From: Candidatus Omnitrophota bacterium
GTDB lineage: Bacteria; Omnitrophota; Gorgyraeia; Zapsychrales; Fredricksoniimonadaceae
DNA: 64,000 nt
NCBI GenBank assembly: GCA_903944345.1
Contig: CAJARJ010000021.1
Coordinates: 5,528-69,527, forward strand
Reading direction: 5' to 3'
The notes beneath the pieces were generated by a model, which was given only the letters and a program-made list of their open reading frames with translations, had not been told where the DNA came from and made no database searches. Both the position numbers and the translations under genes were made by a program. Of this stretch, positions 12,438 through 43,259 are shown piece after piece. Within the stretch, counting starts at the first letter, position 1. Every line of letters starts with the position of its first letter.

Positions 12438-12456
12438 TTAATCAGAAAGAGGGGTT

Positions 12457-13005: not shown

Positions 13006-13089
13006 AGGTTGATCTTTTGGGATCTTCTTTTCGGAAACGCCTTGCGTGTGTTTTATGCAAATGTTAAGCTTTGTATTAGAAAGGGTCGC

Positions 13090-13644: not shown

Positions 13645-13653
13645 TTCCATCAA

Positions 13654-14091: not shown

Positions 14092-14121
14092 AATTGTACT
14101 TGTAGCAAGCGGGAACGGGAG

Positions 14122-16916: not shown

Positions 16917-16932
16917 CAAAGCGAGAGGATAT

Positions 16933-17426: not shown

Positions 17427-18398
17427 ATGGATTTTCCATATCTTGATTCTGCTGATACCCCTCAGATTGCGGCATTATGGCTCAGGAACAATTATGCGCC
17501 CGCCGTTCCTCGAACCCAATTGATCGAGCATATTCGCTGGAAATATGATTCCCGACGAGCTGTGATTTACAGCCAAAGGGAAGAGGGCCGGATTTTTGCC
17601 ACAACAGGCTACTTAAAGGGATCTTTCTGCAATGGAAACAGCATTTTTAGTATTGGTTGGGGCATGGACTCTCTGATTGATGAGCCGTTAAGAGATGGTC
17701 GTGTGTTTGCCTTTATGCGTGTATTGCGCTCTACCATGCGTTCTGCCGAGCACGAAATTCTGGTTGCTTTTGCCAACAAGAACGTTCACGACACCTATTT
17801 ACGGATTGGTTTCCAGCCTTGGAATGGTTTTTTCTTTTATCAGGCAAAGCTGCAAGCCGGGATGGTGCTGCCAGTTCGACCCGACAGGGGGTTTGATCTT
17901 TTATGGAAAGATGAGCTGGATGTGTCGGGGGCTGAAGCTCTGTTCAGGCGAACGCAGGGGTTTTATCAGGGGATCAGTCCGAGAGACAAGGAATATCTGG
18001 ACTGGCGTTATGGTCAATGTCCTTTTCGTCGGCATGTGTTTCTGCATGTTTATCGGCAAAGGGTTTTGGTTGGATATTGTGCGGTACGCTTTGTTTTGCA
18101 ACCGGAATCGCGGACAGGCTATATTGTGGATCTTCTGGATTCTCCCGACGATGATGCCGTGCTGGAGGTTATGTTGCTGGAGCTTATGGCACGTTGCCGG
18201 CAGCGAGAAATTGCGCAGATCGAAACTGTTTTGACGAATGGGCGGATTTCACAGGGACTGTTGCGTTGTGGATTTTTTCGGCAGCAGCAGGAAACTGTGT
18301 TGGTGTGGCTGAAGAGTGACCGGGCACGCAGGTTTTTTGAACAGGGTTCGACAGGCATGCATTTGACGATGAGTGACGGCGATTATGATATGGAATAA
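17427..18398 (+). CDS. Hypothetical protein, possibly a GNAT-fold / FemAB-like acyltransferase
   Basis: 323 aa. The C-terminal half has a GNAT-like topology (VGYCAVRF...GYIVDLL...LELMARCRQREIAQIE); I recognised no diagnostic motif. Confidence 0.3.
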   Translation: MDFPYLDSADTPQIAALWLRNNYAPAVPRTQLIEHIRWKYDSRRAVIYSQREEGRIFATTGYLKGSFCNGNSIFSIGWGMDSLIDEPLRDGRVFAFMRVLRSTMRSAEHEILVAFANKNVHDTYLRIGFQPWNGFFFYQAKLQAGMVLPVRPDRGFDLLWKDELDVSGAEALFRRTQGFYQGISPRDKEYLDWRYGQCPFRRHVFLHVYRQRVLVGYCAVRFVLQPESRTGYIVDLLDSPDDDAVLEVMLLELMARCRQREIAQIETVLTNGRISQGLLRCGFFRQQQETVLVWLKSDRARRFFEQGSTGMHLTMSDGDYDME

Positions 18399-19296
18399 GT
18401 TAGGTAGTGGGCAAGGTTCGCAATGGCCCCGGAAGGAGAAGAGTATGGTTGGCGTTCACCGCAAGCCGCTGGATATAGAAGAAATGATGACAACGTGCGG
18501 CGGGTTTGTACGCTATTTTGGCACCAATGAACCGGTGTCGCATATTGCCAGTGTCCTGGAGAAAACAGTATTCCGTCGGGTTTTGGCTTGCTGTGGAGGA
18601 GGGGATCAGGCTTTGACATTGCTCGGGCTGGCGGGGCGCCCTTCAGAAATTTATGCGTTTGACATGAATCTGGCGCAGCTGTTTGTTCTGGCCTGCAAGG
18701 CCCAGCTCTTCAAGGATAAGAAAATGAAGACGTATGCTCCTTCTTTCGATCGGATCAGCCGGTTGAACATGGGAAGAATTCGCGCCCTTCCTAATGATGT
18801 TCGGCCCGTGGATACGCTGCTGACTATTCCAGGAGAAAGAAAGATTGCGCTGGAACATGTTTTTGCCGGCCGGTTTGGCTACGAGGTCGACACCGGGATG
18901 CACGATTTTCTCAAGAAGAATATTTACTGGGCAGATGATGCGCGTTTTATTTCCAGGATTCGTTCCGGATTGCCGGCGCTTAAAGGAATTCATTGTGATT
19001 TGCTTTCCTTGTCGGACTGGTTTGCGCCGGATTATCTCGATGTGATATATGTGTCGGATATCCCTTTGCACAATGCTATTCCTTATTATCTGGAAAGACT
19101 GCGTTGCCTGGTGGATTGTCTGGCGCCGGGTGGATTGTTTATTGGCAATCTGGAGGATCAGGCGGTTCTGGATCGCTGCCCGTCGGTGATTGAGGTGATG
19201 CGCAGTTATAAGGATTTGTTCGGGTTAGTGGAGTTCAGGAAAACAGGACAAATTCTGGCTTTACGCAAGGTGCGGCCTGTCAGAAGTATTGGATAA
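18373..19296 (+). CDS. DUF3419 / BtaA-like class-I SAM-dependent protein (paralog of 8413..9246)
   Basis: GGFVRYF, VLACCGGGDQALTLLGLAG, AFDMNLAQLFVL and LDVIYVSDIP blocks. Confidence 0.45.
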   Translation: MTAIMIWNKLGSGQGSQWPRKEKSMVGVHRKPLDIEEMMTTCGGFVRYFGTNEPVSHIASVLEKTVFRRVLACCGGGDQALTLLGLAGRPSEIYAFDMNLAQLFVLACKAQLFKDKKMKTYAPSFDRISRLNMGRIRALPNDVRPVDTLLTIPGERKIALEHVFAGRFGYEVDTGMHDFLKKNIYWADDARFISRIRSGLPALKGIHCDLLSLSDWFAPDYLDVIYVSDIPLHNAIPYYLERLRCLVDCLAPGGLFIGNLEDQAVLDRCPSVIEVMRSYKDLFGLVEFRKTGQILALRKVRPVRSIG

Positions 19297-20668
19297 AAGA
19301 ACGATGCCCCGAGAAATTGCTGTCATTTTTTTTGCGCAGGATGACCGTGTTGTGCCGGTGGATTTGGTTGAGGCCATTGCCTGGTTGGAACAGTCGGGAA
19401 TCAGGCACAAGCTTTACATGCCGGCACGCGGGAAAAGAGGCAGCTGGCGGCAAGCTGTTGCTGAAACTTTGAGCGGAGTCCAGGCGGATGAAGTGTTTGT
19501 ATGTTTTTTGAATGAAAATCATTATCTGGCAACAGCGTCTTTACTTCAGCTGGTCTTTTGTGCAGAGTTTCTCGGGGATAGAGATATTCATGTCTGCCTG
19601 CCGGCTTTAAGTTTGTTTAGGGGGCGGCCTGCGTTGCGGGGGCGTTTTGTCTGGCACGCAAAGAAACTGACGCAGGTTCTTGGTGAACGGCTGGACGGGT
19701 TGAAAAAAGAGCGGTTATTCTCACCGGAAGTCCTTGCCGATGTCACGGTTCGTCTCGGATACAGAAGACAGATCCTTTCGGCTCTCTGGTCGCCGGGGTG
19801 CGGGCACAGCTGTTCGTTTTGTTTTTCCCGTGACAACGGAGAAATGATTGAGCCTGATGCCGGCATTCGTCAGGAAAAACTAGTTTTTCTGCTTGAGCTG
19901 GCGCGTTTAACCGAAGCAAGTTGTTTTAAATTTCGTGATCCTGACTTTCTGGGAGTTCCCGCTAACGCCTGGGAGGCGTTGCGGATTCTTGGTTCTGTCG
20001 CTCCGGGTACAGCGTTTAGATGTAACGCACGACTGGAAGACCTCAATAGAGAGGCACTTGTGCGTCTTGCGGACGCCGGATGCTCCCAGGTATTTTCCGG
20101 TGTGGAGCATGTTTCGATGCGCCTGGTGGAGGCGACAGGAAAACAGGAGAAAGTTCTCGGTCTATTAGCGGGCGTGTTGGCCCATAAACCCCGCAAGATG
20201 GATCTTGCCTTGTCTTTTCTGGCCGGCCTTCCGGGAGAGACCTTGCCGGAGGCGAAGGATAATTTGTGTTTGATCAGGAAGTTAATGAAGTTGAAGGGGG
20301 TTAAACCATATCTTGGGTATTATGTTTTGTTTGCCCAAGAGGTCCGGTCAGGGGCTTTTTTCGATCCCTTGCTGGCTTGCCTGAATTTTTCGGCGATTGT
20401 TCCCGAGGGCATGTTTCTGGATTATCAGGATTATTGTGGCCTGCTAAAGACAGTTAGAGAAGATGCTTTTTTCAGTTTTTTTGCTGCTGCCCTTAATCGA
20501 AACAGCGCTGAGGTTATTCGAATGTTGCTGCGCGAATTTAGCGCGGACGCATGCTTGTCTGAGTGCATGCCGATGGCTAGAAAACTGCTTCTGTTGCGCC
20601 CGGAGCTGGCCAATAGAATAATGAGTGAGCTTGGTGCGCCAACGTTTTTGTGCAGGGGGGCTGTGTGA
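19289..20668 (+). CDS. B12-binding-domain radical SAM protein (paralog of 9233..10660)
   Basis: PGCGHSCSFC cluster motif after a ~165-aa N-terminal domain; FKFRDPDFLG and FSGVEHVSMRL blocks shared with the paralog. Confidence 0.65.
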   Translation: MDKRTMPREIAVIFFAQDDRVVPVDLVEAIAWLEQSGIRHKLYMPARGKRGSWRQAVAETLSGVQADEVFVCFLNENHYLATASLLQLVFCAEFLGDRDIHVCLPALSLFRGRPALRGRFVWHAKKLTQVLGERLDGLKKERLFSPEVLADVTVRLGYRRQILSALWSPGCGHSCSFCFSRDNGEMIEPDAGIRQEKLVFLLELARLTEASCFKFRDPDFLGVPANAWEALRILGSVAPGTAFRCNARLEDLNREALVRLADAGCSQVFSGVEHVSMRLVEATGKQEKVLGLLAGVLAHKPRKMDLALSFLAGLPGETLPEAKDNLCLIRKLMKLKGVKPYLGYYVLFAQEVRSGAFFDPLLACLNFSAIVPEGMFLDYQDYCGLLKTVREDAFFSFFAAALNRNSAEVIRMLLREFSADACLSECMPMARKLLLLRPELANRIMSELGAPTFLCRGAV

Positions 20669-22155
20669 TCAGATTGGCTGTTGACAAAAAAGTTTCATTG
20701 TCCTCTCTGTGCCCGAAACAGGATTTTTTCGAGGTTCTCAATGGAGCCGGTATCGCGGCTTTTGATGAGCGCGGTTTTTTTAATCGTGTTTATGCGCGGG
20801 AGGCCCTGGAGCTTTATCAGCGGCACGAATTGGGGGCTCTCAGGCAGATAGCCAGCCGGGGGGCAGTGCTTGTTTGTGATGAGGTTCGACAGAGACTGTT
20901 TCTTGTGGCAGACAGCGCCGGGCATTCGACTTTTTATTATCTGTTGCGGCAGGGAGAGCTGATTTTTTCCAGTCGGCTTCAGGAACTGGATGAGTATTTT
21001 CGTTTTGACTTGAGTGAACGCTCTACCGATGAATATCTGGCCTGTGGTTTCATAAGTTCTCCGTTGACCGTTTTTGATGGTGTAGGAAAACTTCCTCCCG
21101 GAGGATATTTATTGCTTGAAAATGGCCGGGTTCAGGTTTCTGTTTGTCGAAAGACAAAGATTCCTGCCAGCGATAAAGTATCGGATAACTATCAACGAGA
21201 GCTTGAGGCTGCTTTTGAGAGTTGCCTGGCTCGAACGGCGGATGCTCCGTCCGGGTTGATGCTCAGCGGTGGTTACGATTCTTCTCTTTTAGGGGAGCTT
21301 CTATTGCGCCGTTACGGTCGGCTGCGGACCTGGGTCGTTGATATGATGGGGTATAATGCGGCAACTGTCCGTCAAGCCCAGGAAATGTCGCGCATTCTGG
21401 GGACAGACCATTCTTGTATTCCGGTGAGTGCCCGTGATTATATGGGATATTTCAGAAAGGCGCTCGGATTGGTTGAGGAACCGCTGCTTGACCTGGATTT
21501 TCCGGTTATTCGTCAGGCGGTGCTGGCGATAGGGAACAAGGCCCAATATGTTTGGCATGGATTTGGCAGTGACGAGGTTTTGGGAGAAAGGGTTATTGAT
21601 TTCAAGGGGGCGCTTACTCTTTTTGCCGCACAAAAAGGGAGGTCATCCTGGAAAGGGAAGATATCTGTGCGTCAGATCGGGCAGGCTTTTCTTGCCACCA
21701 AAGTTCCCCAGGAATTGCGGGCGCATTATCGTTTATGCGAAGCAAGCGGAACTTGCCTGGTTTTTCCGTTTTTTGAACCGGAACTGATTAGTGTGGCAGC
21801 CCGGATGCCAATTAATCTGATGAAAAATAAACGGCTTCTACGAGGGATGTCTTCCCGTCTTCATCAGCTTCTGCCTGTGCAGCCAAGAGAGGAGCGGGGG
21901 CAGATGCCGGCGCTGATCAAGCATGTGCTGATTGAAGGGCACAAGGAGTCCTTGCTGGCGGACAGTTTTCTGGCAGTTTTTATAAAGAAGAACGGCGCTT
22001 CTGCAATTTTTGAGCGCAAGAGTGAAGATTTGCTTTTACGGATGATAGTTTTTCTTGTCTGGAAGCAGGAAAGAGATCGTCGCTTGTCGCTGGTTTTTTT
22101 TGACCCGCGGAGTTCGGGGGCCAGCAGGGGAGAAATAAGTGTTGCCCGCGATTGA
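20650..22155 (+). CDS. Asparagine synthetase (AsnB)-like amidotransferase homolog, full length
   Basis: 501 aa; PP-loop LMLSGGYDSSLLGELL at ~residue 205; HGFGSDEVLGE block. The N-terminus MQGGC is not a canonical Cys-2 Ntn glutaminase start, so it may be a non-glutaminase family member as in lasso-peptide-cyclase-type AsnB homologs. Confidence 0.6.
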   Translation: MQGGCVIRLAVDKKVSLSSLCPKQDFFEVLNGAGIAAFDERGFFNRVYAREALELYQRHELGALRQIASRGAVLVCDEVRQRLFLVADSAGHSTFYYLLRQGELIFSSRLQELDEYFRFDLSERSTDEYLACGFISSPLTVFDGVGKLPPGGYLLLENGRVQVSVCRKTKIPASDKVSDNYQRELEAAFESCLARTADAPSGLMLSGGYDSSLLGELLLRRYGRLRTWVVDMMGYNAATVRQAQEMSRILGTDHSCIPVSARDYMGYFRKALGLVEEPLLDLDFPVIRQAVLAIGNKAQYVWHGFGSDEVLGERVIDFKGALTLFAAQKGRSSWKGKISVRQIGQAFLATKVPQELRAHYRLCEASGTCLVFPFFEPELISVAARMPINLMKNKRLLRGMSSRLHQLLPVQPREERGQMPALIKHVLIEGHKESLLADSFLAVFIKKNGASAIFERKSEDLLLRMIVFLVWKQERDRRLSLVFFDPRSSGASRGEISVARD

Positions 22156-23152
22156 TCATGTCTGGATATTCATTACCGGCCGGTGTAATGTGCGTTGTGA
22201 GCATTGTTTTTTTGCACACAAATCGGAGCGCCTGCGTTTGTCAAGTCGTTCGCAGGACGCTCTGTTTCGCTTTCTGTCTGCTGCCGGCAAGAAACAATTC
22301 ATTATCTCGGGAGGTGAGCCGTTTATGGTATGGCCGGCCACACGCGCGCTGCTACTGCGGATCAGGCAGGCGTATCCGCAGGCGTATTTGTCTGTCCAGT
22401 CTAACGGGTTAATGATGAAGCCGGGACATTTGGTTACGCTTAAATCAATGCGGGCGAATCTGGAGCTTGGCATAGATGGTGATGAGGCGGCGGTGGCCGC
22501 CAGTCGGCGGGGGTTGCCGAGGGGCGGCTTTCAGAGGTTATGCGCATCTTTGTCAGCTGCGCGGACGGCAGGGGTTGGTCTGAGCACAACCATGACAGTC
22601 ACTCCGCAAAATGTGGCGAATTTATCGGATAATTTTATGGCGTTGCTTGGCTTGCGCGCGCGCGCGATTGAGATTCATCCGGCTTTTATGGCGCAGTGGC
22701 GGCGGGCAGAAAGCAGGCTTTTTTTGCAGGGATACCGTCGCGCCCTTGCCAGCGAACTACGAATGGGAGAGCGGGGACTGATTAGCAGGGAATACAGCCT
22801 GCCAGCCAAAGGGGTTTGGGATATGGTTATTCTTCCTGACGGGAAGGTGCTTGCGAACTGGACCTTTTTGTCATTCCCGGAGCATGTGCGTGAACAATTT
22901 GTGGTGATGGATTTATCAAAGAGGGATGGAGAATTCTTGCCGGCGGCGAAGAGCTATTTTTCCGCCTTGCGCAAGTTTCTCGGGCAAGGTTCTGCTCCGG
23001 TTTCGTATCGCCGTTTAAGTAATTTTAATGCCTCTCTGGCCATTTCTGCCTGGGGGAATCCGCAGTCCGGACGATGTTTTAAGGAGTATGTCCGCTTGTG
23101 CGATGAGATTGAGCAGATTGATCTTGCAACCATAAGGAGACGGCCCGCATGA
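22139..23152 (+). CDS. Radical SAM protein (paralog of 5995..6996)
   Basis: ITGRCNVRCEHC cluster motif; SGGEPFM and LSVQSNGL blocks. Confidence 0.8.
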   Translation: MLPAIDHVWIFITGRCNVRCEHCFFAHKSERLRLSSRSQDALFRFLSAAGKKQFIISGGEPFMVWPATRALLLRIRQAYPQAYLSVQSNGLMMKPGHLVTLKSMRANLELGIDGDEAAVAASRRGLPRGGFQRLCASLSAARTAGVGLSTTMTVTPQNVANLSDNFMALLGLRARAIEIHPAFMAQWRRAESRLFLQGYRRALASELRMGERGLISREYSLPAKGVWDMVILPDGKVLANWTFLSFPEHVREQFVVMDLSKRDGEFLPAAKSYFSALRKFLGQGSAPVSYRRLSNFNASLAISAWGNPQSGRCFKEYVRLCDEIEQIDLATIRRRPA

Positions 23153-24261
23153 TTCGCTATGAGAGTGTGTTTGTGGAGCAGGTTCTGGCTAAAGAGTACG
23201 CAGTGCTGATGCAGGCACTTCTTAAGAATATACAAGGGTTAAACGATATAAAACCTCTTATTCGGGATTTCGAGCAGGAGTTTGCGCAATATATCGGCGT
23301 CAGGCATGCTCTGGCCATCAATTCAGGAAGCGATGGTTTGCGTCTGGTTTTACGGGCGGCCGGAGTGCGTCCGGGTGACGAGGTGATTATTCCCGATCTG
23401 ACCTATCAGGCGGTGGCCCTGGCCGTGGTTTACAGTGGTGCCCGTCCGGTCATAGCGGATGCGTGCTCAGACGATCTAAATATTAGTGCCGCAGATGTGG
23501 AGAGACTTGTAACGCCTCGCACGCGGGCGATTATTGCAGCACATATGTTTGGCCGGGCCTGCAATCTGGACGCTTTACAGGACATTTGTCGCCGCCGGGG
23601 GATTGTTTTGATCGAGGATGTGTGTCAGGCGGAAAGTTCGACTTATAGAGGCAAGATGTTGGGGAGTTTTGGTGAGTTGGCAGTTTTTTCGTTCTCCTAT
23701 TACAAGCCGTTGTCCTCCTGTGGAGGCGGTGGCGGAATGGTGGCGTTTAACCGGGAGGAATTTGGTTCGATTGCAGACTGGCAGAATGACTGGCAGGACA
23801 AGCCGGAGTTGTTGACTAACGGGCAGCGTTTTGCGCCGCTGTCCTTTATGGATCTGGTGGTGCTCAAAGTCAAGTTTTCCCATCTGAAAAAGATTGTCGA
23901 TTCGCGCAAGAAAATCAAGGGGATTTACGAGCGAACCTTGAAAGATGTTCCAGGGCTGGAGCTGTATATTGATCCTCCCGCGACGGATTCGGTTCCGCAA
24001 AACTTTGTAATTGCTTGCGAATGCCGTGATGAGCTTATGCGTTATCTTTTTGCGAAGGATATTATGGTGCAAAAACCGTATATTCCTTTGCATCTTATGT
24101 CAGCCTACCGGACTTTTTCAGGCTCGGATTATCCGGTCAGTGACAGGTATTATCAGAGGGCGCTGCACCTTCCATTGTATTCGTTCATGAGCGAGGAGAA
24201 AGCGCTGCGGGTGGTGGCTGTCTGTCGGGCGTTTTTTGGCGCAAAGGCTGGTCAGAAATGA
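23149..24261 (+). CDS. DegT/DnrJ/EryC1/StrS-family PLP-dependent aminotransferase
   Basis: FSFSYYKPLSSCGGGGGMV block, the family's SFHxxKxxxxGEGG-like PLP-lysine region; N-terminal LAINSGSDGL; overall length and order of motifs match the family. Confidence 0.7.
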   Translation: MIRYESVFVEQVLAKEYAVLMQALLKNIQGLNDIKPLIRDFEQEFAQYIGVRHALAINSGSDGLRLVLRAAGVRPGDEVIIPDLTYQAVALAVVYSGARPVIADACSDDLNISAADVERLVTPRTRAIIAAHMFGRACNLDALQDICRRRGIVLIEDVCQAESSTYRGKMLGSFGELAVFSFSYYKPLSSCGGGGGMVAFNREEFGSIADWQNDWQDKPELLTNGQRFAPLSFMDLVVLKVKFSHLKKIVDSRKKIKGIYERTLKDVPGLELYIDPPATDSVPQNFVIACECRDELMRYLFAKDIMVQKPYIPLHLMSAYRTFSGSDYPVSDRYYQRALHLPLYSFMSEEKALRVVAVCRAFFGAKAGQK

Positions 24262-25376
24262 AGGATTTGCGGGGACGGGATCTGTTGCGGTTACGGGGGG
24301 TGGCGGCGGGACACCCCTTGATCGGTCCACGTTCGGTTAACATTCATTTGACCAATGTTTGCAATCTTGCCTGTCGTTTTTGCTGGTACCATTCTCCTTT
24401 GGTGACTTTTGAGGAGAAAAAGCAAGAGCTGGACATTGCGGTGTTCAAGCGGGTTATTGATGACTGTGCCGCCATGTCAGTAGACGCCGTTGATCTGGAG
24501 GGAGGGGAAGTGGTTTGCTATTCACACGCTGAGGAGGCTTTCCGCTATGCCTCCCGGTCAGGGGTAGCTTTGCATGCCTATACCAATCTCGCCTATGGAC
24601 GCAGGCCCTTGGCTTATATCGCGCTGGCGGATCGATTGAATGTTAATTTCTCAGCGGTGAATCGCGAGTCTTATCGGAAGATGCACGGCGCGGATCATTT
24701 TGATCAGGTGGTGGAGAATATTCGCATCTTGACAAGTCTGCATGCCAAAAAGAAGAAGCCGCGTATCTGGTTGACATTTATTATTAACGAAAATAATTTC
24801 CGGGATATCGAACTTTTTCTGGCTTTGGCGGACAGACTGGGTGTGGAGCATGTATTTTTTCGTCTGTTTGAGGCTACGCTTGAGATGAAATCCCTGGTGT
24901 TCAGCAAAGCATCGGCGCGGGAGTTGGGACCGCTGCTGCTTCGTCTTCTGGGGAGTTCATATAAAATTCCCAATAATCTGGCAGAAATCTCTGCAGTAGT
25001 CAACAATGGGCAGTTTCTGAAAAATATTGTCGATATTCCGCGAACGGCACATAATAACGACCGTTTCTTTTATTATCATAACCTGCGTTCTGCCACCACG
25101 CGCTGTTATACAGGCTGGTTTTTCTCTCTTATAGACGAAAAGGGTCGGGTGATTGCTCCCTGCGACAACATAGGCGTTTGTATTGCGGGTAATGTTTATA
25201 AGGATTCGTTTAGGGATATCTGGTATTCTTCTGAAAAATTCTGCCGTATTCGTCAGGAAGCCCTGCACTGTATTGATACCCGTAAGCGCAAATGGAAAGA
25301 ATGCCGTTATTGCGGTCACGCCGTGTTTAATCAGGAGATGGATGACTTTATTGCGCAAAGAAGGGGCACGTCATGA
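24258..25376 (+). CDS. Radical SAM / SPASM-domain protein
   Basis: HLTNVCNLACRFCWY; C-terminal CYTGWFF...APCDN...CIAGN...CRYCGH Cys pattern. Overlaps its neighbours by 4 nt. Confidence 0.8.
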   Translation: MKDLRGRDLLRLRGVAAGHPLIGPRSVNIHLTNVCNLACRFCWYHSPLVTFEEKKQELDIAVFKRVIDDCAAMSVDAVDLEGGEVVCYSHAEEAFRYASRSGVALHAYTNLAYGRRPLAYIALADRLNVNFSAVNRESYRKMHGADHFDQVVENIRILTSLHAKKKKPRIWLTFIINENNFRDIELFLALADRLGVEHVFFRLFEATLEMKSLVFSKASARELGPLLLRLLGSSYKIPNNLAEISAVVNNGQFLKNIVDIPRTAHNNDRFFYYHNLRSATTRCYTGWFFSLIDEKGRVIAPCDNIGVCIAGNVYKDSFRDIWYSSEKFCRIRQEALHCIDTRKRKWKECRYCGHAVFNQEMDDFIAQRRGTS

Positions 25377-26350
25377 TTCTTGACGCTGCCGAAACGAGAA
25401 AAAGATTTTTGCTGCGCATGGCAGGCGTGCGCGATGGCAAGGCCTATATCGGTCCGGAGATTGTGCATTTGCATATGACCACCCGCTGTAATCTTTCTTG
25501 CGCCTATTGTTCGTATCACCCGCCGGGATATAAAATCGGTCCGGATCGCCCGATGGATTTTTCGTTGCCGCTTTTTTTGCGCCTGATCGATGAAGCCGTC
25601 AAGTTGCGGTCGAACGCGGTGTATTTGTCCGGGGAGGGTGAGCCGACCATGCATCCACATTTTCGAGAGATGATTTCCGCGCTGGAGAAGGCACCGATCG
25701 AGACGACTTTGTTTACAAATGCGACTTATGATCCCCGCCTTTCAGAGGAGTTGGTCAAGGCGGATCGGCTGATTGTTAATTTAAGTGCTGCTAATGCGAA
25801 GAGTTATCTTGAGATGCAGGGTCGGGATTTCTTTGAACGGGTGCTGGAGAATTTACGGATTCTGGTGCATTTACGCGATACGCAAAAGCCCGGCTTGAGG
25901 GTGGAGATTTCATTTATTTCCAACCGCAAGAATGCAGGAGAGCTTCAAGAGCTCCAGAGCCTGGGAAAGCGGCTCGGGGTTTGCGCTGTTAATGATATTC
26001 GGATGCTCCCGACACCGTACAGCGGGGAGCTTGGCCTTGATGTTGACCAGGAGCAGGAGTCTGTCCGGCCCAGGACGGCGTTTCCTTTGTGTTTTAACGG
26101 GTGGTTCTATTTTGTAGTTTCGGTCGATGGCAAAGTCAGTCTGTGTTGTTCGATCGACCGGATGGTGAAAGCTGATTTTCGCAAATCGTCGCTGGTCGAG
26201 ATCTGGAATTCGAAAGAATTCCAGGCCATGCGGGCGGGGGGAACCAGAGGAGTCTTTCATCAGGTTTTTCCGGAATGTCGAAATTGTTTTGCGGATGGGC
26301 GCAATCGCTCGGTTGCCAGAAACCTCGGGATTTTACCTGTATATGGATAA
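25373..26350 (+). CDS. Radical SAM / SPASM-domain protein
   Basis: HMTTRCNLSCAYCSY; SGEGEPTM SAM-binding block; C-terminal CFNGWFY...SLCCS...CRNC Cys pattern. Confidence 0.8.
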   Translation: MILDAAETRKRFLLRMAGVRDGKAYIGPEIVHLHMTTRCNLSCAYCSYHPPGYKIGPDRPMDFSLPLFLRLIDEAVKLRSNAVYLSGEGEPTMHPHFREMISALEKAPIETTLFTNATYDPRLSEELVKADRLIVNLSAANAKSYLEMQGRDFFERVLENLRILVHLRDTQKPGLRVEISFISNRKNAGELQELQSLGKRLGVCAVNDIRMLPTPYSGELGLDVDQEQESVRPRTAFPLCFNGWFYFVVSVDGKVSLCCSIDRMVKADFRKSSLVEIWNSKEFQAMRAGGTRGVFHQVFPECRNCFADGRNRSVARNLGILPVYG

Positions 26351-27344
26351 ACTGCAGCTTGACGGCATAACGATCGAGATTACTAACCATTGTCAGCTCA
26401 AATGTGCGATATGCGGTATCGGGGGCGAGGTTTCGCGCCAGCAGATTGCGGCGGATGATTTTGTGTTGATGATGGATCGTTTGCAGGAGCGCTTTGACCT
26501 GCAGTGGGTTTCCGTTACGGGAGGCGAGCCCTTTCTGCATCCGCAGCTGCGGGAAATCCTGAGATATCTGGCGCGGTTAAAATTGCAAAGAAGGCTGGAG
26601 TCTTTCGGTCTTTATACCAACGGAGTGGCAACCCAAAAAATTCAGACTCTGTTGGCACAGGATCGCAAGTTTCTGTCCGGCATGAGGATTGGTGTCAGCC
26701 TGGATGGGTTGCAGCGGGCGCATGACCGCAGGCGGGGCCGGGGGAGTTATTGTAAAACGATGGCGACCTTAAACTGGTTGTCGCGAGAATGTGCCGGTGT
26801 TTATGATCTGGAAGTCAAGTTTACTGTCGGGACAGATAATGTTGGCGAAATGCTTCATGTTTATCGCCTGGCAAATGCTCTTGGGGCCAGGTTTTCTCCC
26901 AAACTTCTGGAGAGCGGCGTGGGTGCTTATTATCATCGCCATGAAGATGGCTCAGGTCCGCTCGTGCTTCCCTGGGGCGACGAAGAGTGTTTGACTCAAA
27001 TTCGTAGTGTTATGCGTGAGGACATCGAGTCGCGCCGCAAGGCGGTGGATCTTAAGGCACTCAAGGTTTTGTTGTGCTTGGTGCGTGATGGAGAGAGGAT
27101 TATACGTCGTTGCCGGACACCGGAACGCTGTCTGTTTGTGACTTCTTGCGGAAAGGTGTATCCATGTCTGTATATGGCACCGGCGGGGACGATTTATTCG
27201 TCAGATTTTCCCGGCGAAGATTTTTTTAAGGAACGTCAAAAGCAGATTGCGACAGGGAAGAATGGAAAGTGTTCGCGCTGTTTTGCCTATCATGGTTTTA
27301 TGAAAGATTTTAATTTTGATCCTGATTTGGGCAATCTGCTTTAG
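26343..27344 (+). CDS. Radical SAM / SPASM-domain protein
   Basis: Start at the internal ATG at 26343, which overlaps the upstream stop by 8 nt. EITNHCQLKCAICGI; TGGEPFLH; C-terminal CLFVTSCGKVYPC...CSRCFAYHG. Confidence 0.8.
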   Translation: MDKLQLDGITIEITNHCQLKCAICGIGGEVSRQQIAADDFVLMMDRLQERFDLQWVSVTGGEPFLHPQLREILRYLARLKLQRRLESFGLYTNGVATQKIQTLLAQDRKFLSGMRIGVSLDGLQRAHDRRRGRGSYCKTMATLNWLSRECAGVYDLEVKFTVGTDNVGEMLHVYRLANALGARFSPKLLESGVGAYYHRHEDGSGPLVLPWGDEECLTQIRSVMREDIESRRKAVDLKALKVLLCLVRDGERIIRRCRTPERCLFVTSCGKVYPCLYMAPAGTIYSSDFPGEDFFKERQKQIATGKNGKCSRCFAYHGFMKDFNFDPDLGNLL

Positions 27345-27381
27345 CCGGGATGCTATGTCCGATGCATTCTGAGCTGGGGAA

Positions 27382-28584
27382 TTAAGGTTTCAGGATTTCG
27401 ATGGTGCGGGCTGTTCCGGTAAACCATTCTTGCGGCGGCGCGGGAAAGTTTCCAGGTTTTTCGCATTTCTCTCGTATTGCTGCTGCCAGTGTTGCGGGTT
27501 CCAGTTCGTGATAGTTAAGGACAGTGCTGTTGATCCGTTCCTTGAGTAACAGGGCCCGGGATTGCTGGTCGTTGGCGGGTTCATTCTGGGTTTTATTAAT
27601 ATATGGAACGATTATGCTTTGCGTTCCCGAGGTCAATAGTTGTACGGAAGTGTTGTAGCCGCACATGCTGATTGACAGCTGGCAGGAGCGCATGAGTTGA
27701 GCCAGTCCGGGGACGTGGTCAAAGAGGCGGATGCGGCTGCGATCCGATAAAGACAGGCAGGCCTCGAAGAGTTTTTTTTCTTCAGGGGTTGTTGAGGGAC
27801 CGCAGGCGATGGTCATGCGATACTTTTCACCCAGATGCTTGTGCGCCCGGATGGCACAGGCAATTATATTAGGGTAAACCGCCCCGCCCCCCCGGCTGAT
27901 AACAATATGATATGGTGCCGGATGCGGCCAATTAATGATTTGTGGCGGGCAGGGATCTTCAGCTGGAAGGACATAGCCGGTATAAGTGATTTTATCCCGG
28001 ATACGTTCAAAGAACTGGTCGTAGCCTGTCTGCAATTCGGGTTTTGCCAGAACTGTTCGAAGATAAGGATTTTCCAGTTGAGGAGGGGTGTGGATCAGCA
28101 ACTGGTCATAGAGGCCGATCAGGCGTATGGTCAGATCCATATCGCCCGACTTGGCCAGATTATAGATTTGAATCAGAAAAGGATAGCCGATACTGGCATA
28201 GATTTTTTTTCCGCATTGGCGTAGATGGCGTAAGGCCGGCAGCAGTTCCGGCGTGTAGTCCGCCCGTCCGAAAGGAAAAAATTCGGTTACGAAGATGTCA
28301 GGATTAACACTGCGGACTGTTTTCATAACGAACTCGCAGCGCAGGGGCAGAGATGTTGCGCTGCGCCCGCCGTGGAAGCTGAGTCGGGAATCGAATGGAT
28401 AAGGAATTGGGTGCAGGCCAACATTCTTTGGAAAGCGGATTGCGGGTTGCTCGGTTCCGGCCTGCAGAAGATGCACGCGGACTCCTGCCCGGGAGAGTCC
28501 ATGGCAGAGGGCGTGAACCCGGGTGCTGTGTCCCAGAGTGCCTTTGTGGGTGTAGTGAATCAGTACCGAGGGTTTCTTTTGCAT
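27382..28584 (-). CDS. GT1-family glycosyltransferase (MurG/MGT-like fold)
   Basis: Start placed at the internal M (MQKKPSVLIHYTHKGTLGHSTR), which gives the Gly/His-rich N-terminal loop typical of GT-B GT1 enzymes. The 448-aa track ORF would otherwise overlap the divergent CorC gene. Confidence 0.5.
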   Translation of the reverse strand: MQKKPSVLIHYTHKGTLGHSTRVHALCHGLSRAGVRVHLLQAGTEQPAIRFPKNVGLHPIPYPFDSRLSFHGGRSATSLPLRCEFVMKTVRSVNPDIFVTEFFPFGRADYTPELLPALRHLRQCGKKIYASIGYPFLIQIYNLAKSGDMDLTIRLIGLYDQLLIHTPPQLENPYLRTVLAKPELQTGYDQFFERIRDKITYTGYVLPAEDPCPPQIINWPHPAPYHIVISRGGGAVYPNIIACAIRAHKHLGEKYRMTIACGPSTTPEEKKLFEACLSLSDRSRIRLFDHVPGLAQLMRSCQLSISMCGYNTSVQLLTSGTQSIIVPYINKTQNEPANDQQSRALLLKERINSTVLNYHELEPATLAAAIREKCEKPGNFPAPPQEWFTGTARTIEILKP

Positions 28585-32911: not shown

Positions 32912-35374
32912 TTGGTGTTCCCGAAGGAGGAAGGCATGTCGAAGTCCGAGGAAAAGAGTGGCTTACCCGCCGATATGAGCAAAGAGGATATCAAGCGTTG
33001 TTTTCAGGATATTCGGGCTCATTATCTTGCAAAAAATCAAGACAGCGCAACAACTTTAGACAATTTTCATGCCTTGGCCTTGACGGTGCGTCATCGCATT
33101 GTTGATCGCTGGATGCGCACCCAGAAAAGCTATCATGAGCGTAATGCAAGGCGGGTCTACTATTTGTCCATGGAATTCCTGATCGGGCGCCTCATGGGCA
33201 ATTATATGTTCAATCTTGGCAAGGAGAAAGATATTGAGGCGGCCTTGCGCGAGATGGATATAAGCTTGGATGATGTGCGTAACGAAGAGCTGGATGCCGG
33301 GCTCGGCAATGGCGGTCTTGGGCGTTTGGCGGCTTGTTTTCTGGATTCTATGGCGACGTTGCGTGTTCCGGCGTATGGGTACGGCATTCGATACGATTAC
33401 GGGATTTTTAATCAGAAGATACAGGATGGTAATCAATTCGAGCTGCCGGACGAATGGATGCGCAATGGCAATCCCTGGGAAATTCCCCGGCCCGAATATA
33501 CGGTCAAGATTAACTTCTACGGACGCATTGATCACTCTTCGCAATTCACTTCTCCTTGGGTTGATACTGAAGCCGTTCTGGCGGTTCCCTACGATATTCC
33601 AATTCCTGGTTACAAGAATGATGTGGTCAATACCTTGCGATTGTGGTCGGCTCGGGCAACTGATGAGTTTGAGTTCGATTATTTCAACCACGGTAATTAC
33701 GATCGGGCTGTTCAAAAGAAAATTCTTTCTGAAAGCATTTCCAAGGTGCTTTATCCGAACGACAACGTTAATCAGGGCAAGGAGTTGCGGCTCAAGCAGG
33801 AGTATTTCTTTACAGCGGCCGCTATTGCAGACATTATTCGTCGCCATAAGGTAGGCAAAAATGATATCCGCTCCTTGCATAACAAGGCTTGCATCCAGTT
33901 AAACGATACGCATCCTACGCTGGCTATTCTCGAGCTTATGCGGGTCTTGCTTGACCAGGAGGGACTCTCTTGGGAGGATGCCTGGAGTATTACCAGCCAG
34001 ACTTTTGCTTACACCAATCACACGCTTTTGCCCGAAGCGCTGGAATGTTGGACAGTTCCTTTGATGCAAACGGTGTTGCCGCGCCATCTTGAGATCGCTT
34101 ATGAAGTTAATGCGCGTTTCTTGGCGGATGTTGCCAGAAAATTTCCCGGAGATAATGCCCGTTCTATCCGCATGTCCGTCATTCAGGAGGGGGATATCAA
34201 GCGGGTGCGCATGGGGTTTCTGGCCATTATTGGAAGTTTTTCTGTGAACGGGGTTTCTGCCCTGCATTCGACTTTGCTTAAAACAGATTTGTTCAAAGAT
34301 TTTTATGAAATGTTCCCGGAGCGGTTTAACAACAAGACCAACGGGATAACTCCCAGGCGTTGGTTGTTAAAAGCCAATCCCCGCCTGGCAGACCTGATTA
34401 CGGAAACTGTGGGCGACAGATGGGTAACCGAGCTCGAAGATTTGCGCGGGCTTGAGCGGCATAAGGATAGTCGGGAGTTTCGCCGCCGCTGGCAGGCAAT
34501 CAAGCAGGCAAATAAGGTTGCTCTTTCCGAGTATGTTTTTCGCGCTATGGATGTACCGGTTGACCCCAATTCTCTTTTTGATGTTCAGGTCAAGCGAATA
34601 CACGAATACAAGAGACAGTTCCTTTTCGGGCTTTATATTATTTCCCAGTATTTGAGCATCAAGAACAATCCCGCTGCGTTTGTCCAGCCGCGTACTTTTA
34701 TAATCGGCGGCAAAGCGGCACCCGGGTATTATTTGGCAAAGCTGATCATCAAGTTCTTGAACAATGTGGCTATGGTTATTAATCAGGACAAGCCTGTGCG
34801 CGAGAAAATCCGTTTGGTGTTTCTGGAAAACTATCGAGTGTCGCTTGCCGAAAAAATCATGCCTGCGGCGGATCTTTCCGAGCAGATTTCCACGGCTGGC
34901 ATGGAAGCGTCGGGTACTGGTAATATGAAATTCATGCTGAACGGGGCGTTGACGATCGGAACTTATGACGGGGCCAATGTGGAGATGTCCGAGCAGCTTA
35001 ATGGCGAAGACATTTTTATTTTTGGCCTGAGGGCCGGTGAAGTGGCGGATTTACGTGCCAAGGGGTATAATCCCAGAGACTATATCAAGGCGTCGGCATC
35101 GCTGCGTGAAACTTTTCGTTTGCTGGAGAATGATTTCTTTTCCCCTGGGCAGCCAGGGCTTTTTGATCCTTTGCTGGATACTATCTATCATGGTGACCAT
35201 TTTATGGTGTGCGCGGATTATGACGCTTATTTAAAGGCGCAGGATGCCGTTTCGCGTGCTTATAGCGACCGCGATTCCTGGACAGGAAAAACAGTTGTGA
35301 ATGTCGCCCGTAGCGGATTTTTTTCCAGTGACCGCACTATTCGCGAGTATGCCAGGGAGATATGGCGTGTCTAG
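32912..35374 (+). CDS. glgP: Glycogen/maltodextrin phosphorylase
   Basis: 820 aa; PLP-lysine signature EASGTGNMKFMLNGALTIGTYDGANVEM; colinear with GlgP/MalP throughout. Confidence 0.95.
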   Translation: MVFPKEEGMSKSEEKSGLPADMSKEDIKRCFQDIRAHYLAKNQDSATTLDNFHALALTVRHRIVDRWMRTQKSYHERNARRVYYLSMEFLIGRLMGNYMFNLGKEKDIEAALREMDISLDDVRNEELDAGLGNGGLGRLAACFLDSMATLRVPAYGYGIRYDYGIFNQKIQDGNQFELPDEWMRNGNPWEIPRPEYTVKINFYGRIDHSSQFTSPWVDTEAVLAVPYDIPIPGYKNDVVNTLRLWSARATDEFEFDYFNHGNYDRAVQKKILSESISKVLYPNDNVNQGKELRLKQEYFFTAAAIADIIRRHKVGKNDIRSLHNKACIQLNDTHPTLAILELMRVLLDQEGLSWEDAWSITSQTFAYTNHTLLPEALECWTVPLMQTVLPRHLEIAYEVNARFLADVARKFPGDNARSIRMSVIQEGDIKRVRMGFLAIIGSFSVNGVSALHSTLLKTDLFKDFYEMFPERFNNKTNGITPRRWLLKANPRLADLITETVGDRWVTELEDLRGLERHKDSREFRRRWQAIKQANKVALSEYVFRAMDVPVDPNSLFDVQVKRIHEYKRQFLFGLYIISQYLSIKNNPAAFVQPRTFIIGGKAAPGYYLAKLIIKFLNNVAMVINQDKPVREKIRLVFLENYRVSLAEKIMPAADLSEQISTAGMEASGTGNMKFMLNGALTIGTYDGANVEMSEQLNGEDIFIFGLRAGEVADLRAKGYNPRDYIKASASLRETFRLLENDFFSPGQPGLFDPLLDTIYHGDHFMVCADYDAYLKAQDAVSRAYSDRDSWTGKTVVNVARSGFFSSDRTIREYAREIWRV

Positions 35375-35446
35375 AAATATCCGGTTCGCCCGCGAAGTTG
35401 GGGTGGCCTGTTCGGAAATAAAAAAACAGATCGTTAGCGCGTTCTA

Positions 35447-37492: not shown

Positions 37493-37507
37493 CGAAAAGG
37501 GTTTTCT

Positions 37508-39202: not shown

Positions 39203-39261
39203 GGGCTCTTTCGGAAAGTTGGGAAAGGTTTATCTTAATGGTTTGACAACACGCCTGTGGC

Positions 39262-41706: not shown

Positions 41707-41724
41707 GCGCAGGAAGGAGGGCCT

Positions 41725-43257: not shown

Positions 43258-43259
43258 TT

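Follow-up and report, generated by a model that had tools for sequence, protein, structure and literature searches.

The gene block and its setting

The window analysed here (the whole stretch of 64,000 nucleotides from the genome of a Candidatus Omnitrophota bacterium) contains a compact block of six genes, the last of which is convergent with the others:

22139-23152, plus strand: rSAM0, radical-SAM enzyme (PF04055, E-value 4.1e-13)
23149-24261, plus strand: DegT, a DegT/DnrJ/EryC1/StrS-family PLP aminotransferase (open reading frame and Pfam DegT_DnrJ_EryC1)
24258-25376, plus strand: rSAM-A, radical-SAM enzyme, predicted to be Twitch-type (Pfam Radical_SAM)
25373-26350, plus strand: rSAM-B, radical-SAM enzyme, predicted to be Twitch-type (Pfam Radical_SAM)
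26343-27344, plus strand: rSAM-C, radical-SAM enzyme, predicted to be Twitch-type (Pfam Radical_SAM)
27382-28584, minus strand: GT, convergent GT-B glycosyltransferase with a GT1-like fold (Pfam Glyco_tran_28_C)

The junctions at 23149 (where rSAM0 overlaps the start of DegT), 24258 and 25373 are ATGA overlaps of 4 nt, the one at 26343 is an 8-nt overlap (ATGGATAA), and 37 nt separate the stop of rSAM-C from that of the convergent GT; ortholog alignments back the ATG starts at 26343 (rSAM-C) and 28584 (GT). The preliminary description of this locus had reported an aminotransferase, three radical-SAM genes overlapping by 4 to 8 nt and a convergent glycosyltransferase, and the open reading frames and Pfam matches give the same genes in the same order, with overlaps of 4, 4 and 8 nt at 24258, 25373 and 26343. 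A fourth radical-SAM gene, rSAM0, was absent from that list and is a core member of the block.

The block makes up the core of a large Omnitrophota cluster, uncharacterised so far and at least 25 kb in size (about 1104-28584), which is interrupted at 12457-17355. Its surroundings are as follows:

1104-12237, mixed strands: left half of the conserved cluster, comprising the next ten entries
1104: DUF2334
1786-3726, minus strand: 9-TM membrane protein
3808: ApbA-like reductase
4808: PaaK-like ligase
5926: rSAM0 paralog
6941, minus strand: PP-loop ATPase
7703: second PP-loop ATPase
8413: DUF3419-like protein of the left half
9233: 475-aa rSAM
10645: PMT_2 GT-C transferase
12457-13644: Thr/Asn-repeat proteins
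13654-17355: His-Xaa-Ser (HXS) system (NCBIfam models)
15092-16501: HxsB (368.9 bits against a cut-off of 370)
16485-17355: two HxsA genes
17427, plus strand: 323-aa protein of unknown family, which recurs in locus L097; start of an overlapping gene string (17427-22155) upstream of the block
18373, plus strand: DUF3419-like protein, in this string
19289, plus strand: 459-aa rSAM, in this string
20650, plus strand: full-length AsnB-like amidotransferase, in this string

Several of these neighbours accompany the block in other genomes: the DUF3419-like protein and the rSAM460 paired with it recur with the module in 6 and 9 loci, AsnB500 stands directly before rSAM0-DegT in 4 loci, and the PaaK-like ligase, the rSAM0 paralog, rSAM0 and DegT are contiguous in other loci.

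Membership of the His-Xaa-Ser system, a known antiphage system, is found for 13654-17355 only. HxsB has an N-terminal extension of 97 residues, the HxsC/HxsC4, HxsD and HxsA3 models are matched under their cut-offs, and the six genes of the block give no meaningful match to the HXS models. The His-Xaa-Ser genes are a system separate from the sugar-type block, and since they mature a protein, the sugar hypothesis of the preliminary description, which had been offered for the whole cluster, does not extend that far.

The block lies in one unbroken plus-strand gene string directly after the two HxsA genes, and the only strong promoter-like site is at 12409, so that it may be co-transcribed with the peptide systems. 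Such a position, on the same strand and with no notable terminator-like break, would suit a role in peptide or protein maturation, in which rSAM0 and the three other rSAMs would modify HxsA or the Thr/Asn-repeat proteins, DegT and GT serving to decorate them. We consider this very unlikely: the genes from 17427 to 27344 leave no gap that could hold a precursor gene, and Hxs or repeat-protein homologues turned up in none of the other module-carrying loci that were fetched.

The enzymes and their nearest relatives

rSAM-A, rSAM-B and rSAM-C belong to the radical-SAM superfamily. Each has one CX3CX2C motif (at residues 35, 39 and 17, respectively) and matches PF04055 (E-values of 5.5e-14, 4e-14 and 1.9e-12), and the cysteines of the motif are invariant across the ortholog alignments, save in one N-terminally truncated sequence of the rSAM-C set. 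In its alignment, rSAM-A conserves C35/C39/C42, then C283, C302, C349 and C352 (in addition, C308 is present in 10 of 11 sequences, and C70, in the N-terminal or core half, is invariant). The corresponding residues are C39/C43/C46, then C240, C258, C302 and C305, plus C259, in rSAM-B, and C17/C21/C24, then C257, C275, C310 and C313, in rSAM-C. The C-terminal pattern common to all three families is C-x17-18-C-x34-46-C-x2-C.

This is not the full SPASM-type pattern that had been attributed to each enzyme. A SPASM domain, with its two auxiliary clusters, is defined by seven or eight conserved cysteines including CX2CX5CX3C; a motif scan finds no CX2CX5CX3C in rSAM-A, rSAM-B or rSAM-C, and each family conserves just four C-terminal cysteines. 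Pfam SPASM matches are obtained for rSAM-A and rSAM-B only, with a model that extends to the Twitch half too. A Twitch domain is a shortened version of the SPASM domain with Cys ligands for one auxiliary cluster (PMC9012708), and, judged by their cysteine pattern, the three proteins are predicted single-cluster Twitch enzymes like BtrN, MoaA and SkfB, not two-cluster SPASM enzymes. rSAM-A is a paralog of rSAM-B (hhalign E-value 4.4e-52 against the rSAM-B family, full-length, 31% identity), and some 50 aa are inserted in rSAM-A ahead of the Twitch domain; rSAM-C is more distant from both, aligning with the rSAM-B family over the core alone (hhalign 9e-17). In rSAM0, the motif is C16/C20/C23, the single other conserved cysteine is C321, and the ortholog alignment shows no conserved auxiliary-cluster cysteines.

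Searched against the PDB, the rSAM-B family profile finds BtrN first (9.3e-12, 48 bits, in two stretches), and the four auxiliary-cluster cysteines of BtrN align residue by residue with invariant cysteines of the rSAM-B family. The AF2 model of rSAM-B (pLDDT 80) has BlsE (3.6e-12) and DesII (9e-12) as its top Foldseek matches, with E-values for sugar and peptide enzymes just about tenfold apart. By these alignments rSAM-B is the most BtrN-like of the three. BtrN is itself a Twitch enzyme that performs a two-electron alcohol oxidation with a four-Cys-ligated auxiliary cluster (PMC9012708). The resemblance is one of mechanism, not of family membership, which we rejected because the match is of modest size and no DOI-synthase-like gene was seen in the window or, as far as Pfam annotates their genes, in related loci. 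Membership of the DesII family (TIGR04426) was also rejected, at 33.7 bits where 450 are required.

The other two enzymes bring back peptide maturation. The profile of rSAM-A matches PqqE (2e-8), SkfB (8.5e-8) and the Twitch region of BtrN (8e-4), that of rSAM-C matches the SkfB core (7e-19) and CteB (4e-8), so that the best solved relative of rSAM-C is a sactisynthase; there are also weak NCBIfam matches to WgkB, MftC and PapB. These peptide-maturase models are matched at 40-60 bits, however, against cut-offs of 265-850, and the alignments to SkfB start at residue 108-111 or so, beyond its RRE region (at residue 111 for rSAM-C, which joins CteB at residue 93), that is, past the N-terminal, peptide-binding parts of these proteins. 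With only 34, 38 and 16 residues ahead of CX3CX2C in rSAM-A, rSAM-B and rSAM-C, an RRE would not fit, and no PqqD/RRE Pfam match is found in any of them. Assignment to the RiPP-maturing rSAM class was therefore rejected, given the lack of an RRE/PqqD-like domain here and of Hxs and repeat-protein genes in the related loci.

DegT is a clear member of its family (262 bits and 9.6e-78 against PF01041, with a gathering score of 19.8), and its K186 (SFSYYK) does not vary among 7 orthologs of 57-61% identity. Its best PDB match is DesV (2oga, 3.4e-53), followed among the top matches by QdtB, perosamine synthase and Gln:scyllo-inositol transaminase. It passes none of the NCBIfam equivalog cut-offs: PseC scores highest (168 against 423 bits), and DegT stays far under the cut-offs of PseC, WecE, ArnB, DesI and LegC alike.

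The sole Pfam match of GT is PF04101 (Glyco_tran_28_C, 5.2e-9), and a PDB sequence search returned no match. Its AF2 model (pLDDT 87) has a GT-B fold, for which the top Foldseek matches (CalG1, OleI/OleD, CalG4, YjiC and plant UGTs, from 2.8e-15 onward) are all GT1 enzymes, at 16% identity or less; MurG (GT28) comes at rank 31. The family has 214 matches, and all the named ones among the 120 listed are from Omnitrophica/Omnitrophota.

The rSAMs stay far from every curated NCBIfam model, with best scores of 59-93 bits where the best-hit models require 380-650. For rSAM-A and rSAM-B alike, the model that scores best is that of the tungsten-cofactor oxidoreductase rSAM maturase (67 and 93 bits), which raises the idea of a cofactor or membrane-lipid pathway, that is, metallocofactor maturation or modification of a lipid head group or core, as in tungsten-cofactor maturases, HpnJ-type hopanoid cyclitol ether synthesis or the tetraether lipid rSAMs. 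The 460-aa rSAMs weakly match HpnJ, AprD4 and PhpK-type models, GT28/MurG-like enzymes use lipid acceptors and MurG is among the fold matches of GT, and a structural or core function would fit phylum-wide conservation. We nevertheless find this quite unlikely. The scores are far under cut-off (93 against 380), the module is devoid of oxidoreductase, lipid-synthesis and isoprenoid genes, and DegT-family substrates are almost exclusively keto-sugars and keto-cyclitols; a glycolipid head group, for its part, would be a sub-case of sugar tailoring.

Conservation across Omnitrophota and the nature of the substrate

At least 13 other loci also contain rSAM0, DegT, the putative Twitch rSAMs and the convergent GT, and the named relatives are all from Omnitrophota. 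The order rSAM0, DegT, rSAM-A/B/C and opposite-strand GT is seen in L006, L008, L091-L093, L109, L111, L112, L114, L116 and others; chance could not account for the arrangement, which is repeated in 13 or more independent loci whose proteins are 36-62% identical. Over 18 loci, DegT is found in 15, rSAM-B in 14, and rSAM-A, rSAM-C and GT in 13 each (GT being convergent with rSAM-C in most of its 13); the rSAM0 family, counted with the paralog at 5926, occurs in 16 of 18 and is located directly upstream of DegT, and rSAM0 is conserved with DegT equally to rSAM-A/B/C. The IlvD of the window is 79-81% identical to that of Omnitrophica MAGs.

The partner families in these loci are of carbohydrate and small-molecule tailoring types: DUF2334/polysaccharide-deacetylase-like proteins, PaaK-like ligase, ApbA reductase, PP-loop/AsnB amidotransferases, APS kinase and sulfotransferases, APH-like kinases, carbamoyltransferase, GT9, MBOAT and PMT_2 GT-C, with the sulfo-, carbamoyl- and phospho-transferases or GT-C membrane transferases being partners in some loci. 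No precursor genes were seen in the related loci, and no Hxs or Thr/Asn-repeat homologues in the fetched loci that carry the module. Distant relatives of rSAM-B lie beside a 4,6-dehydratase, a nucleotidyltransferase, DegT and GT4 (L057), in a NeuB cluster with a GT, a GT4 and a DegT that the rSAM overlaps (L058), and in a NeuB/cytidylyltransferase cluster (L031); one further relative (P0324) is fused to a GT2 domain.

Because the block is kept without Hxs, repeat-protein or RRE components, and because relatives of rSAM-B occur in NDP-sugar and NeuB clusters (with DegT) or fused to GT2, we favour sugar or cyclitol chemistry over peptide chemistry, and think that the small molecule tailored by the cluster is probably of carbohydrate type, either a cyclitol or a sugar linked to a nucleotide or lipid. 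The core of the preliminary description, BtrN-type sugar chemistry, is also supported by the N-termini too short for an RRE, the alignment of the BtrN cysteines and the BlsE and DesII folds; firm clustering of the three enzymes with RRE-bearing peptide clades was not found. The sugar-nucleotide genes that it had suggested looking for just outside the window did not appear: nucleotidyltransferase, 4,6-dehydratase, DOI synthase and inositol-phosphate synthase were not seen in the window or in the 10 kb upstream, nor in the related loci among genes with a Pfam annotation, which some ORFs there do not have.

It had further proposed that the glycan is attached to the Thr/Asn-rich proteins, a link that is not conserved. 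In its fullest form, this would be a protein-glycan pathway in which an unusual amino sugar, carried on a lipid, is attached by PMT_2 (10645) to sequon-rich secreted repeat proteins. The repeat proteins have 12 N-x-S/T sequons each, against 4.3±1.7 and 5.3±1.9 in shuffles, and the PMT_2 gene is immediately upstream of them; a simple scan detects an N-terminal hydrophobic segment in NGT1 and none in NGT2; L114 and L116 have PMT_2-type GT-C proteins within the module, and the window has a second 9-TM protein at 1786-3726. We consider this pathway unlikely all the same, as repeat-protein homologues were not found in the module loci, GT-C genes occur in just 3 of about 15 loci, no PglB/AglB-type oligosaccharyltransferase was detected, and lipid A, LPS or another envelope polymer is an equally possible acceptor (compare ArnT).

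A possible radical route and its known counterparts

How could such a block work? BtrN performs a carbinol-to-keto step on 2-deoxy-scyllo-inosamine, and DesII on TDP-sugars. In the same way, a Twitch rSAM (rSAM-B being the best candidate) may take a hydrogen from a secondary carbinol carbon, with its one four-Cys auxiliary [4Fe-4S] cluster accepting the second electron. The ketone of the resulting keto intermediate would then be converted to an amine by the translationally coupled DegT (PLP, Lys186). rSAM-A, rSAM-C and the two cluster-less rSAMs could add oxidation, epimerisation or deoxygenation steps, standing in for enzymes that depend on NAD or O2. The GT1-like GT-B enzyme would couple the product to an NDP-sugar, or receive it from one, and accessory enzymes would acylate, amidate, deacetylate, sulfate, carbamoylate or phosphorylate it; in some genomes, including the source genome, GT-C membrane transferases might export it onto an envelope acceptor.

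An oxygen-free radical route to an aminated sugar or cyclitol would be the most likely function of the rSAMs, aminotransferase and GT of the block. Going further, and here we would sooner bet against than for, this could be a near phylum-wide Omnitrophota pathway to an aminated, glycosylated pseudo-sugar or aminoglycoside-like compound, made almost entirely by radical-SAM enzymes (5-10 rSAMs per cluster). If so, the three Twitch paralogs would do the work that classical sugar pathways leave to dehydrogenases, epimerases and dehydratases dependent on NAD and O2, and the product, variably sulfated, carbamoylated or phosphorylated, would be an envelope glycoconjugate defining the surface of the ultra-small Omnitrophota cells or, alternatively, a bioactive metabolite in their proposed host-dependent lifestyle.

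The closest parallel is BtrN/BtrS of butirosin (2-deoxystreptamine) biosynthesis, where a four-Cys Twitch rSAM likewise accompanies a DegT-family aminotransferase, the former turning a secondary alcohol into a ketone and the latter the ketone into an amine. However, the structure-based identity of BtrN to rSAM-B is 14% (Foldseek), BtrN has about 250-270 aa compared with 325-372 aa for rSAM-A/B/C, and DOI synthase and the other 2-DOS genes are not present with the block. Butirosin also has one rSAM, whereas we see three putative Twitch paralogs and two further rSAMs, and its hosts are Bacillus or actinomycetes, not a phylum of uncultured anaerobes.

In desosamine biosynthesis (DesI/DesII/DesV), DegT-type aminotransferases flank a radical-SAM step on a TDP-sugar, DesII supplying the keto-sugar that DesV aminates. 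DesV is the best solved relative of DegT, and DesII is the second-best fold match of rSAM-B and one of its top sequence matches, but DesII has about 490 aa and is not known to have a four-Cys Twitch cluster, and TDP-glucose synthase and 4,6-dehydratase are not encoded in the module. SkfB, PqqE, CteB and HxsB resemble rSAM-A/B/C in their radical-SAM core and in ending in an Fe-S domain, but rSAM-A/B/C differ from these SPASM/Twitch RiPP maturases in having just four conserved auxiliary cysteines, no N-terminal RRE or peptide-binding domain and no precursor gene seen to be kept with the module. Finally, a DegT and a PMT_2-family GT-C in one cluster (10645 in the window; L114 and L116) recall ArnB/ArnT, although the ArnB model gives 146 bits against a cut-off of 631, equivalents of ArnA, ArnC and ArnD are not present, the GT-C is found in a minority of loci, and the keto group here would presumably come from a radical-SAM enzyme instead of NAD chemistry.

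Gene block and surroundings

A DegT-family aminotransferase, three coupled radical-SAM (rSAM) enzymes and a convergent glycosyltransferase were named in the preliminary description, and all five are found where it placed them; its rSAM inventory, correct for the three genes that it listed, missed a fourth (rSAM0). The six genes, which together form a conserved module, are as follows.

22139-23152, + strand: rSAM0, fourth rSAM gene, its stop overlapping the DegT start
23149-24261, + strand: DegT aminotransferase
24258-25376, + strand: rSAM-A, radical-SAM gene
25373-26350, + strand: rSAM-B, radical-SAM gene
26343-27344, + strand: rSAM-C, radical-SAM gene
27382-28584, - strand: GT, convergent glycosyltransferase

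ATGA overlaps join the genes at 23149, 24258 and 25373, and rSAM-B and rSAM-C share 8 nt, ATGGATAA, at 26343; the convergent stop codons of rSAM-C and GT are 37 nt apart. Longer ORFs with TTG starts at 26289 (rSAM-C) and 28728 (GT) were dropped, because the N-termini of orthologs fit the ATG codons at 26343 and 28584, respectively.

The + strand ORFs of 17427-27344 form a single string, overlapping or abutting, in the order unknown 323-aa protein, DUF3419-like protein, 459-aa rSAM, AsnB-like amidotransferase, rSAM0, DegT and rSAM-A/B/C. Further to the left, 1104-12237 holds a DUF2334 protein, a 9-TM protein, an ApbA-type reductase, a PaaK-like ligase, a paralog of rSAM0, two PP-loop ATPases, a second DUF3419-like plus rSAM pair and a PMT_2 GT-C transferase. 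The two DUF3419-like pairs (8413-10660 and 18373-20668) are divergent paralogs, whose rSAMs of ~460 aa carry an unassigned N-terminal domain of ~180 aa, and the pair recurs with the module in other loci. The 9-TM protein (646 aa, 1786-3726, - strand, between the DUF2334 and ApbA-like genes) has about nine predicted TM segments and a large soluble C-terminal part, a predicted shape that is GT-C-like, and matches no Pfam or NCBIfam model.

To the right of GT in the window the genes are unrelated to the cluster (CNNM/CBS, IlvD, glycogen and polyphosphate metabolism), and a housekeeping block at 32912-48825 (glycogen phosphorylase, branching enzyme, DUF4139/4140, GH57/DUF3536, Ppx/GppA, PPK1, a CHAD protein, a metallophosphoesterase-Ppx fusion and a ROK kinase) marks its right-hand limit. 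Two adjacent large ORFs lie beyond (49395-53663 and 53691-57818, 1422 and 1375 aa), the first being a "hypothetical protein" in public sources. All 2-kb bins of the window have positive GC skew (+0.09 to +0.26), the + strand carries nearly all long ORFs, and cumulative skew rises monotonically, so that the window contains no replication origin or terminus. Sugar-nucleotide genes, which the preliminary description proposed to look for just outside the window, are absent from the 10 kb upstream of it; these carry tRNA synthetases, a second small HxsD plus rSAM set and one more rSAM.

Conservation of the module and the genes that interrupt the cluster

Sequence matches place the window DNA in Omnitrophota: its IlvD shares 79-81% identity with proteins of Omnitrophica MAGs, with nearly all named top matches in the same phylum, and for the GT family (214 matches) every named one among the 120 listed is from Omnitrophica/Omnitrophota. 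Given these results, the "Clostridia bacterium" label of one 135-aa rSAM-B fragment likely reflects mis-binning. Loci were fetched by three routes, through rSAM-B homologues, through GT homologues and by a metagenome scan with the DegT alignment (28 loci at 54-64% identity), and all ORFs of 18 loci were clustered into families.

Table. Occurrence of protein families in the 18 clustered loci
rSAM0 and its paralog: 16/18
DegT: 15/18
rSAM-B: 14/18
rSAM-A: 13/18
rSAM-C: 13/18
GT: 13/18
DUF2334: 11/18
PaaK-like ligase: 11/18
460-aa rSAM: 9/18
ApbA-like reductase: 7/18
325-aa PP-loop protein: 7/18
A further rSAM: 7/18

Across these loci rSAM0 is conserved with DegT as tightly as are rSAM-A/B/C. The variable extras of the module include APS kinase, sulfotransferases (also of the arylsulfotransferase type), APH-like kinases, a carbamoyltransferase, a halogenase-like flavoprotein, GT9, MBOAT, B12-rSAMs and PMT_2 GT-C proteins, the last being inside the module in loci L114 and L116. 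The rSAM-B family is sizeable (1472 representative clusters at E<=1e-30 in an exhaustive HMMER search), as the GT search and the DegT metagenome scan agree; its apparent rarity in a first word-index search (~9 homologues) was a sensitivity artefact. A genome-contig scan with the rSAM-B alignment captured the generic CNLxCxYC pattern only, with 21-32% identical relatives among the matches listed; it has no bearing on orthologs in GTDB genomes and was reused as a sample of distant relatives.

The genes for the PaaK-like ligase, the rSAM0 paralog, rSAM0 and DegT are contiguous in most loci, whereas in the window the first two are ~15 kb from the last two, with a pair of Thr/Asn-rich repeat proteins and a His-Xaa-Ser (Hxs) system in between. 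The block therefore forms the right-hand core of a conserved cluster, which this genome has in two parts.

The Hxs system (13654-17355) is complete: HxsD is followed by an HxsC-like protein, HxsB (368.9 bits, with the cut-off at 370) and two tandem HxsA3-like repeat proteins, each with one TM segment, His-x-Ser/His-x-Asn runs and a common "HANH(D/S)SY" C-terminus. HXS has been shown to act against phages, with HxsB and HxsC maturing the periplasmic protein HxsA (PMC13128918); the peptidoglycan-binding domain described there for the E. coli effector is not seen in the HxsA proteins of the window. The small upstream set (L148, 6154-8500) is a second Hxs-like unit on the same contig, ~2.5-5 kb before the window start at the left edge of the cluster, with an HxsD-domain gene (PF27806), a 78-aa ORF, a 476-aa rSAM and a 90-aa ORF; two Hxs-like units thus flank or interrupt the rSAM-rich cluster here. 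No Hxs or repeat-protein homologue occurs in any other module locus fetched. The Hxs genes are a unit separate from the conserved cluster, and the single hypothesis first offered for everything in this region does not extend to them.

The repeat proteins (12457-13005 and 13009-13644) are built of "NGTLNVTG(A/V)TT" repeats with weak bactofilin-like matches; both have an N-terminal "LTTFYPxPxGQ(F/Y)" motif and at least one (the first) a signal-like N-terminal segment. A promoter-like site, TTGACA-18-TAAACT with TG, is at 12409-12438, and the antisense ORF 13173-13622 is probably a repeat artefact. It had been proposed that the rSAMs may tailor a glycan, possibly one attached to these proteins; a glycan made specifically for them is possible locally, with 12 N-x-S/T sequons in each protein against ~4-5 in shuffles and a PMT_2 gene adjoining theirs. 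However, the link is not conserved across the module loci, and we consider this proposal unlikely.

The radical-SAM enzymes and their partners

None of the six proteins approaches an NCBIfam model: the best rSAM matches reach 59-93 bits where the cut-offs of the models matched are 380-650, and the best DegT match, PseC, reaches 168 bits (cut-off 423). A reading of the block as a defence system was dropped, PADLOC giving only generic viperin-core matches (25-44 bits) and no family-level assignment.

A full SPASM-type Cys pattern had been attributed to each of rSAM-A, rSAM-B and rSAM-C. A motif scan finds CX2CX5CX3C in none of the three, and alignment of each with 9-11 orthologs gives four conserved C-terminal Cys: C283, C302, C349 and C352 in rSAM-A (plus C308 in 10/11, and an invariant C70 in the N-terminal half), C240, C258, C302 and C305 in rSAM-B (plus C259), and C257, C275, C310 and C313 in rSAM-C. 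The spacing, C-x17-18-C-x34-46-C-x2-C, is in all three that of a predicted single-cluster Twitch arrangement and not SPASM, and the attribution does not hold.

BtrN is the best PDB match of the rSAM-B family profile (9.3e-12), before PqqE and DesII, and its four Cys align with the invariant rSAM-B family Cys in the Twitch stretch; the AF2 model of rSAM-B (pLDDT 80) retrieves BlsE (3.6e-12) and DesII (9e-12) ahead of SuiB, viperins and BtrN. The best solved matches of rSAM-A are PqqE and SkfB, with the BtrN Twitch region at 8e-4, and rSAM-C matches the SkfB core (7e-19) and CteB. The alignments to peptide-modifying enzymes start past their N-terminal peptide-binding domains (SkfB residue ~108-111, CteB residue 93), and the first cluster Cys of rSAM-A, rSAM-B and rSAM-C is preceded by only 34, 38 and 16 residues, respectively, too few for an RRE. 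Peptide maturation by these rSAMs is, we think, very improbable, since RRE and conserved precursors are both lacking and the partner enzymes speak against peptide chemistry.

In DegT the Schiff-base lysine K186 is invariant, and among solved structures the enzyme comes closest to DesV, QdtB, perosamine synthases and a glutamine:scyllo-inositol transaminase. The GT sequence matches nothing in PDB; the GT model (pLDDT 87) has a GT-B fold whose best matches are GT1 natural-product/small-molecule glycosyltransferases, with MurG slightly behind, so that the GT1 label of the preliminary description is reasonable for the predicted structure, if not proven.

Distant rSAM-B relatives (21-32% identical) have a DegT gene within 10 kb in 8 of 79 loci. 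In L057, L058 and L020 (8882-13350), from Pyrinomonadaceae, Deltaproteobacteria and Clostridia MAGs, respectively, a distant Twitch/SPASM relative adjoins or overlaps DegT, and in the first two the pair is inside a classical NDP-sugar or NeuB cluster: NDP-sugar 4,6-dehydratase, nucleotidyltransferase, DegT, rSAM, further genes and GT4 in L057 (6936-14058), and NeuB, GT, rSAM overlapping DegT, and GT4 in L058 (3425-10458). In L031 the relative is among NeuB-like, cytidylyltransferase-like and dehydratase-like genes (assigned by reading translations only), and the Twitch-like Cys pattern is clearest in the aligned L057 and L031 relatives. The pairs of L057, L058 and L020 suggest a wider, undescribed DegT-rSAM pairing in sugar pathways. 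Many of the 1472 HMMER representatives are rSAM fusions of 800-1950 aa; such rSAM-A/rSAM-B relatives (P0303-P0305, P0317, P0324, P0327) have three or four radical-SAM domains, some with a B12-binding domain and P0324 with an N-terminal GT2 glycosyltransferase domain, and they recall the "multi-enzyme" long proteins reportedly present in Omnitrophota. The sugar-type role first proposed for the block thus gains independent support, from the distant relatives near DegT or, as in L031, among sugar-type genes, and from the GT2 fusion.

A putative sugar or cyclitol pathway and its precedents

What we say of the function of the cluster we infer from sequence, structural models and gene context. A carbohydrate or cyclitol is in our view the probable class of substrate; a specific dehydrogenase-then-transaminase step we propose somewhat less firmly. 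A Twitch rSAM, most likely rSAM-B, would supply the keto group for the coupled DegT, which is the simplest reading of a module that lacks NAD-dependent dehydratases and dehydrogenases. The remaining rSAMs may add redox, epimerisation or deoxygenation steps; GT would attach the product to an aglycone or a second sugar, and its decoration would fall to the PaaK-like/ApbA pair, the PP-loop/AsnB enzymes, DUF2334 and the variable transferases. A minority of loci, the window among them, have GT-C proteins, which suggests that at least in those genomes the product ends on an envelope acceptor. That the cluster serves a cofactor or lipid pathway we find rather improbable, and a glycolipid head-group is in any case a sub-case of the sugar or cyclitol explanation.

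Literature searches (Omnitrophota and radical SAM; DUF2334 and radical SAM; BtrN/twitch/DegT) returned no account of this cluster. The superfamilies of its parts are already known, and the DegT-plus-rSAM logic has precedents; what is new is that three Twitch paralogs occur with two other rSAMs, one DegT and a GT1-like GT, that this set is conserved across Omnitrophota, and that its members fall outside any curated family. A large, phylum-typical, unannotated cluster is thereby identified in a phylum that, to our knowledge, has no cultured representatives. Genome-mining tools that equate SPASM/Twitch rSAM clusters with RiPP clusters would probably misfile it, a risk that is raised in this genome by the embedded His-Xaa-Ser system, which does mature a protein.

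If our reading is correct, this is a compact, conserved trio of related Twitch rSAMs with a single sugar aminotransferase, so that they probably act one after another on the intermediates of a single pathway. The trio would then help to show what makes a Twitch enzyme dehydrogenate, epimerise or eliminate when it acts on a carbohydrate; examples known so far are only a handful, BtrN and DesII among them. In desosamine biosynthesis DesV aminates the 3-keto sugar that DesII makes, and in butirosin biosynthesis the DegT-type BtrS aminates the ketone made by BtrN. BtrN itself converts a cyclitol alcohol to that ketone (PMC9012708). In both pairs an rSAM enzyme provides a ketone for subsequent DegT-type amination, and both are precedents that fit the order proposed here for rSAM-B and DegT.
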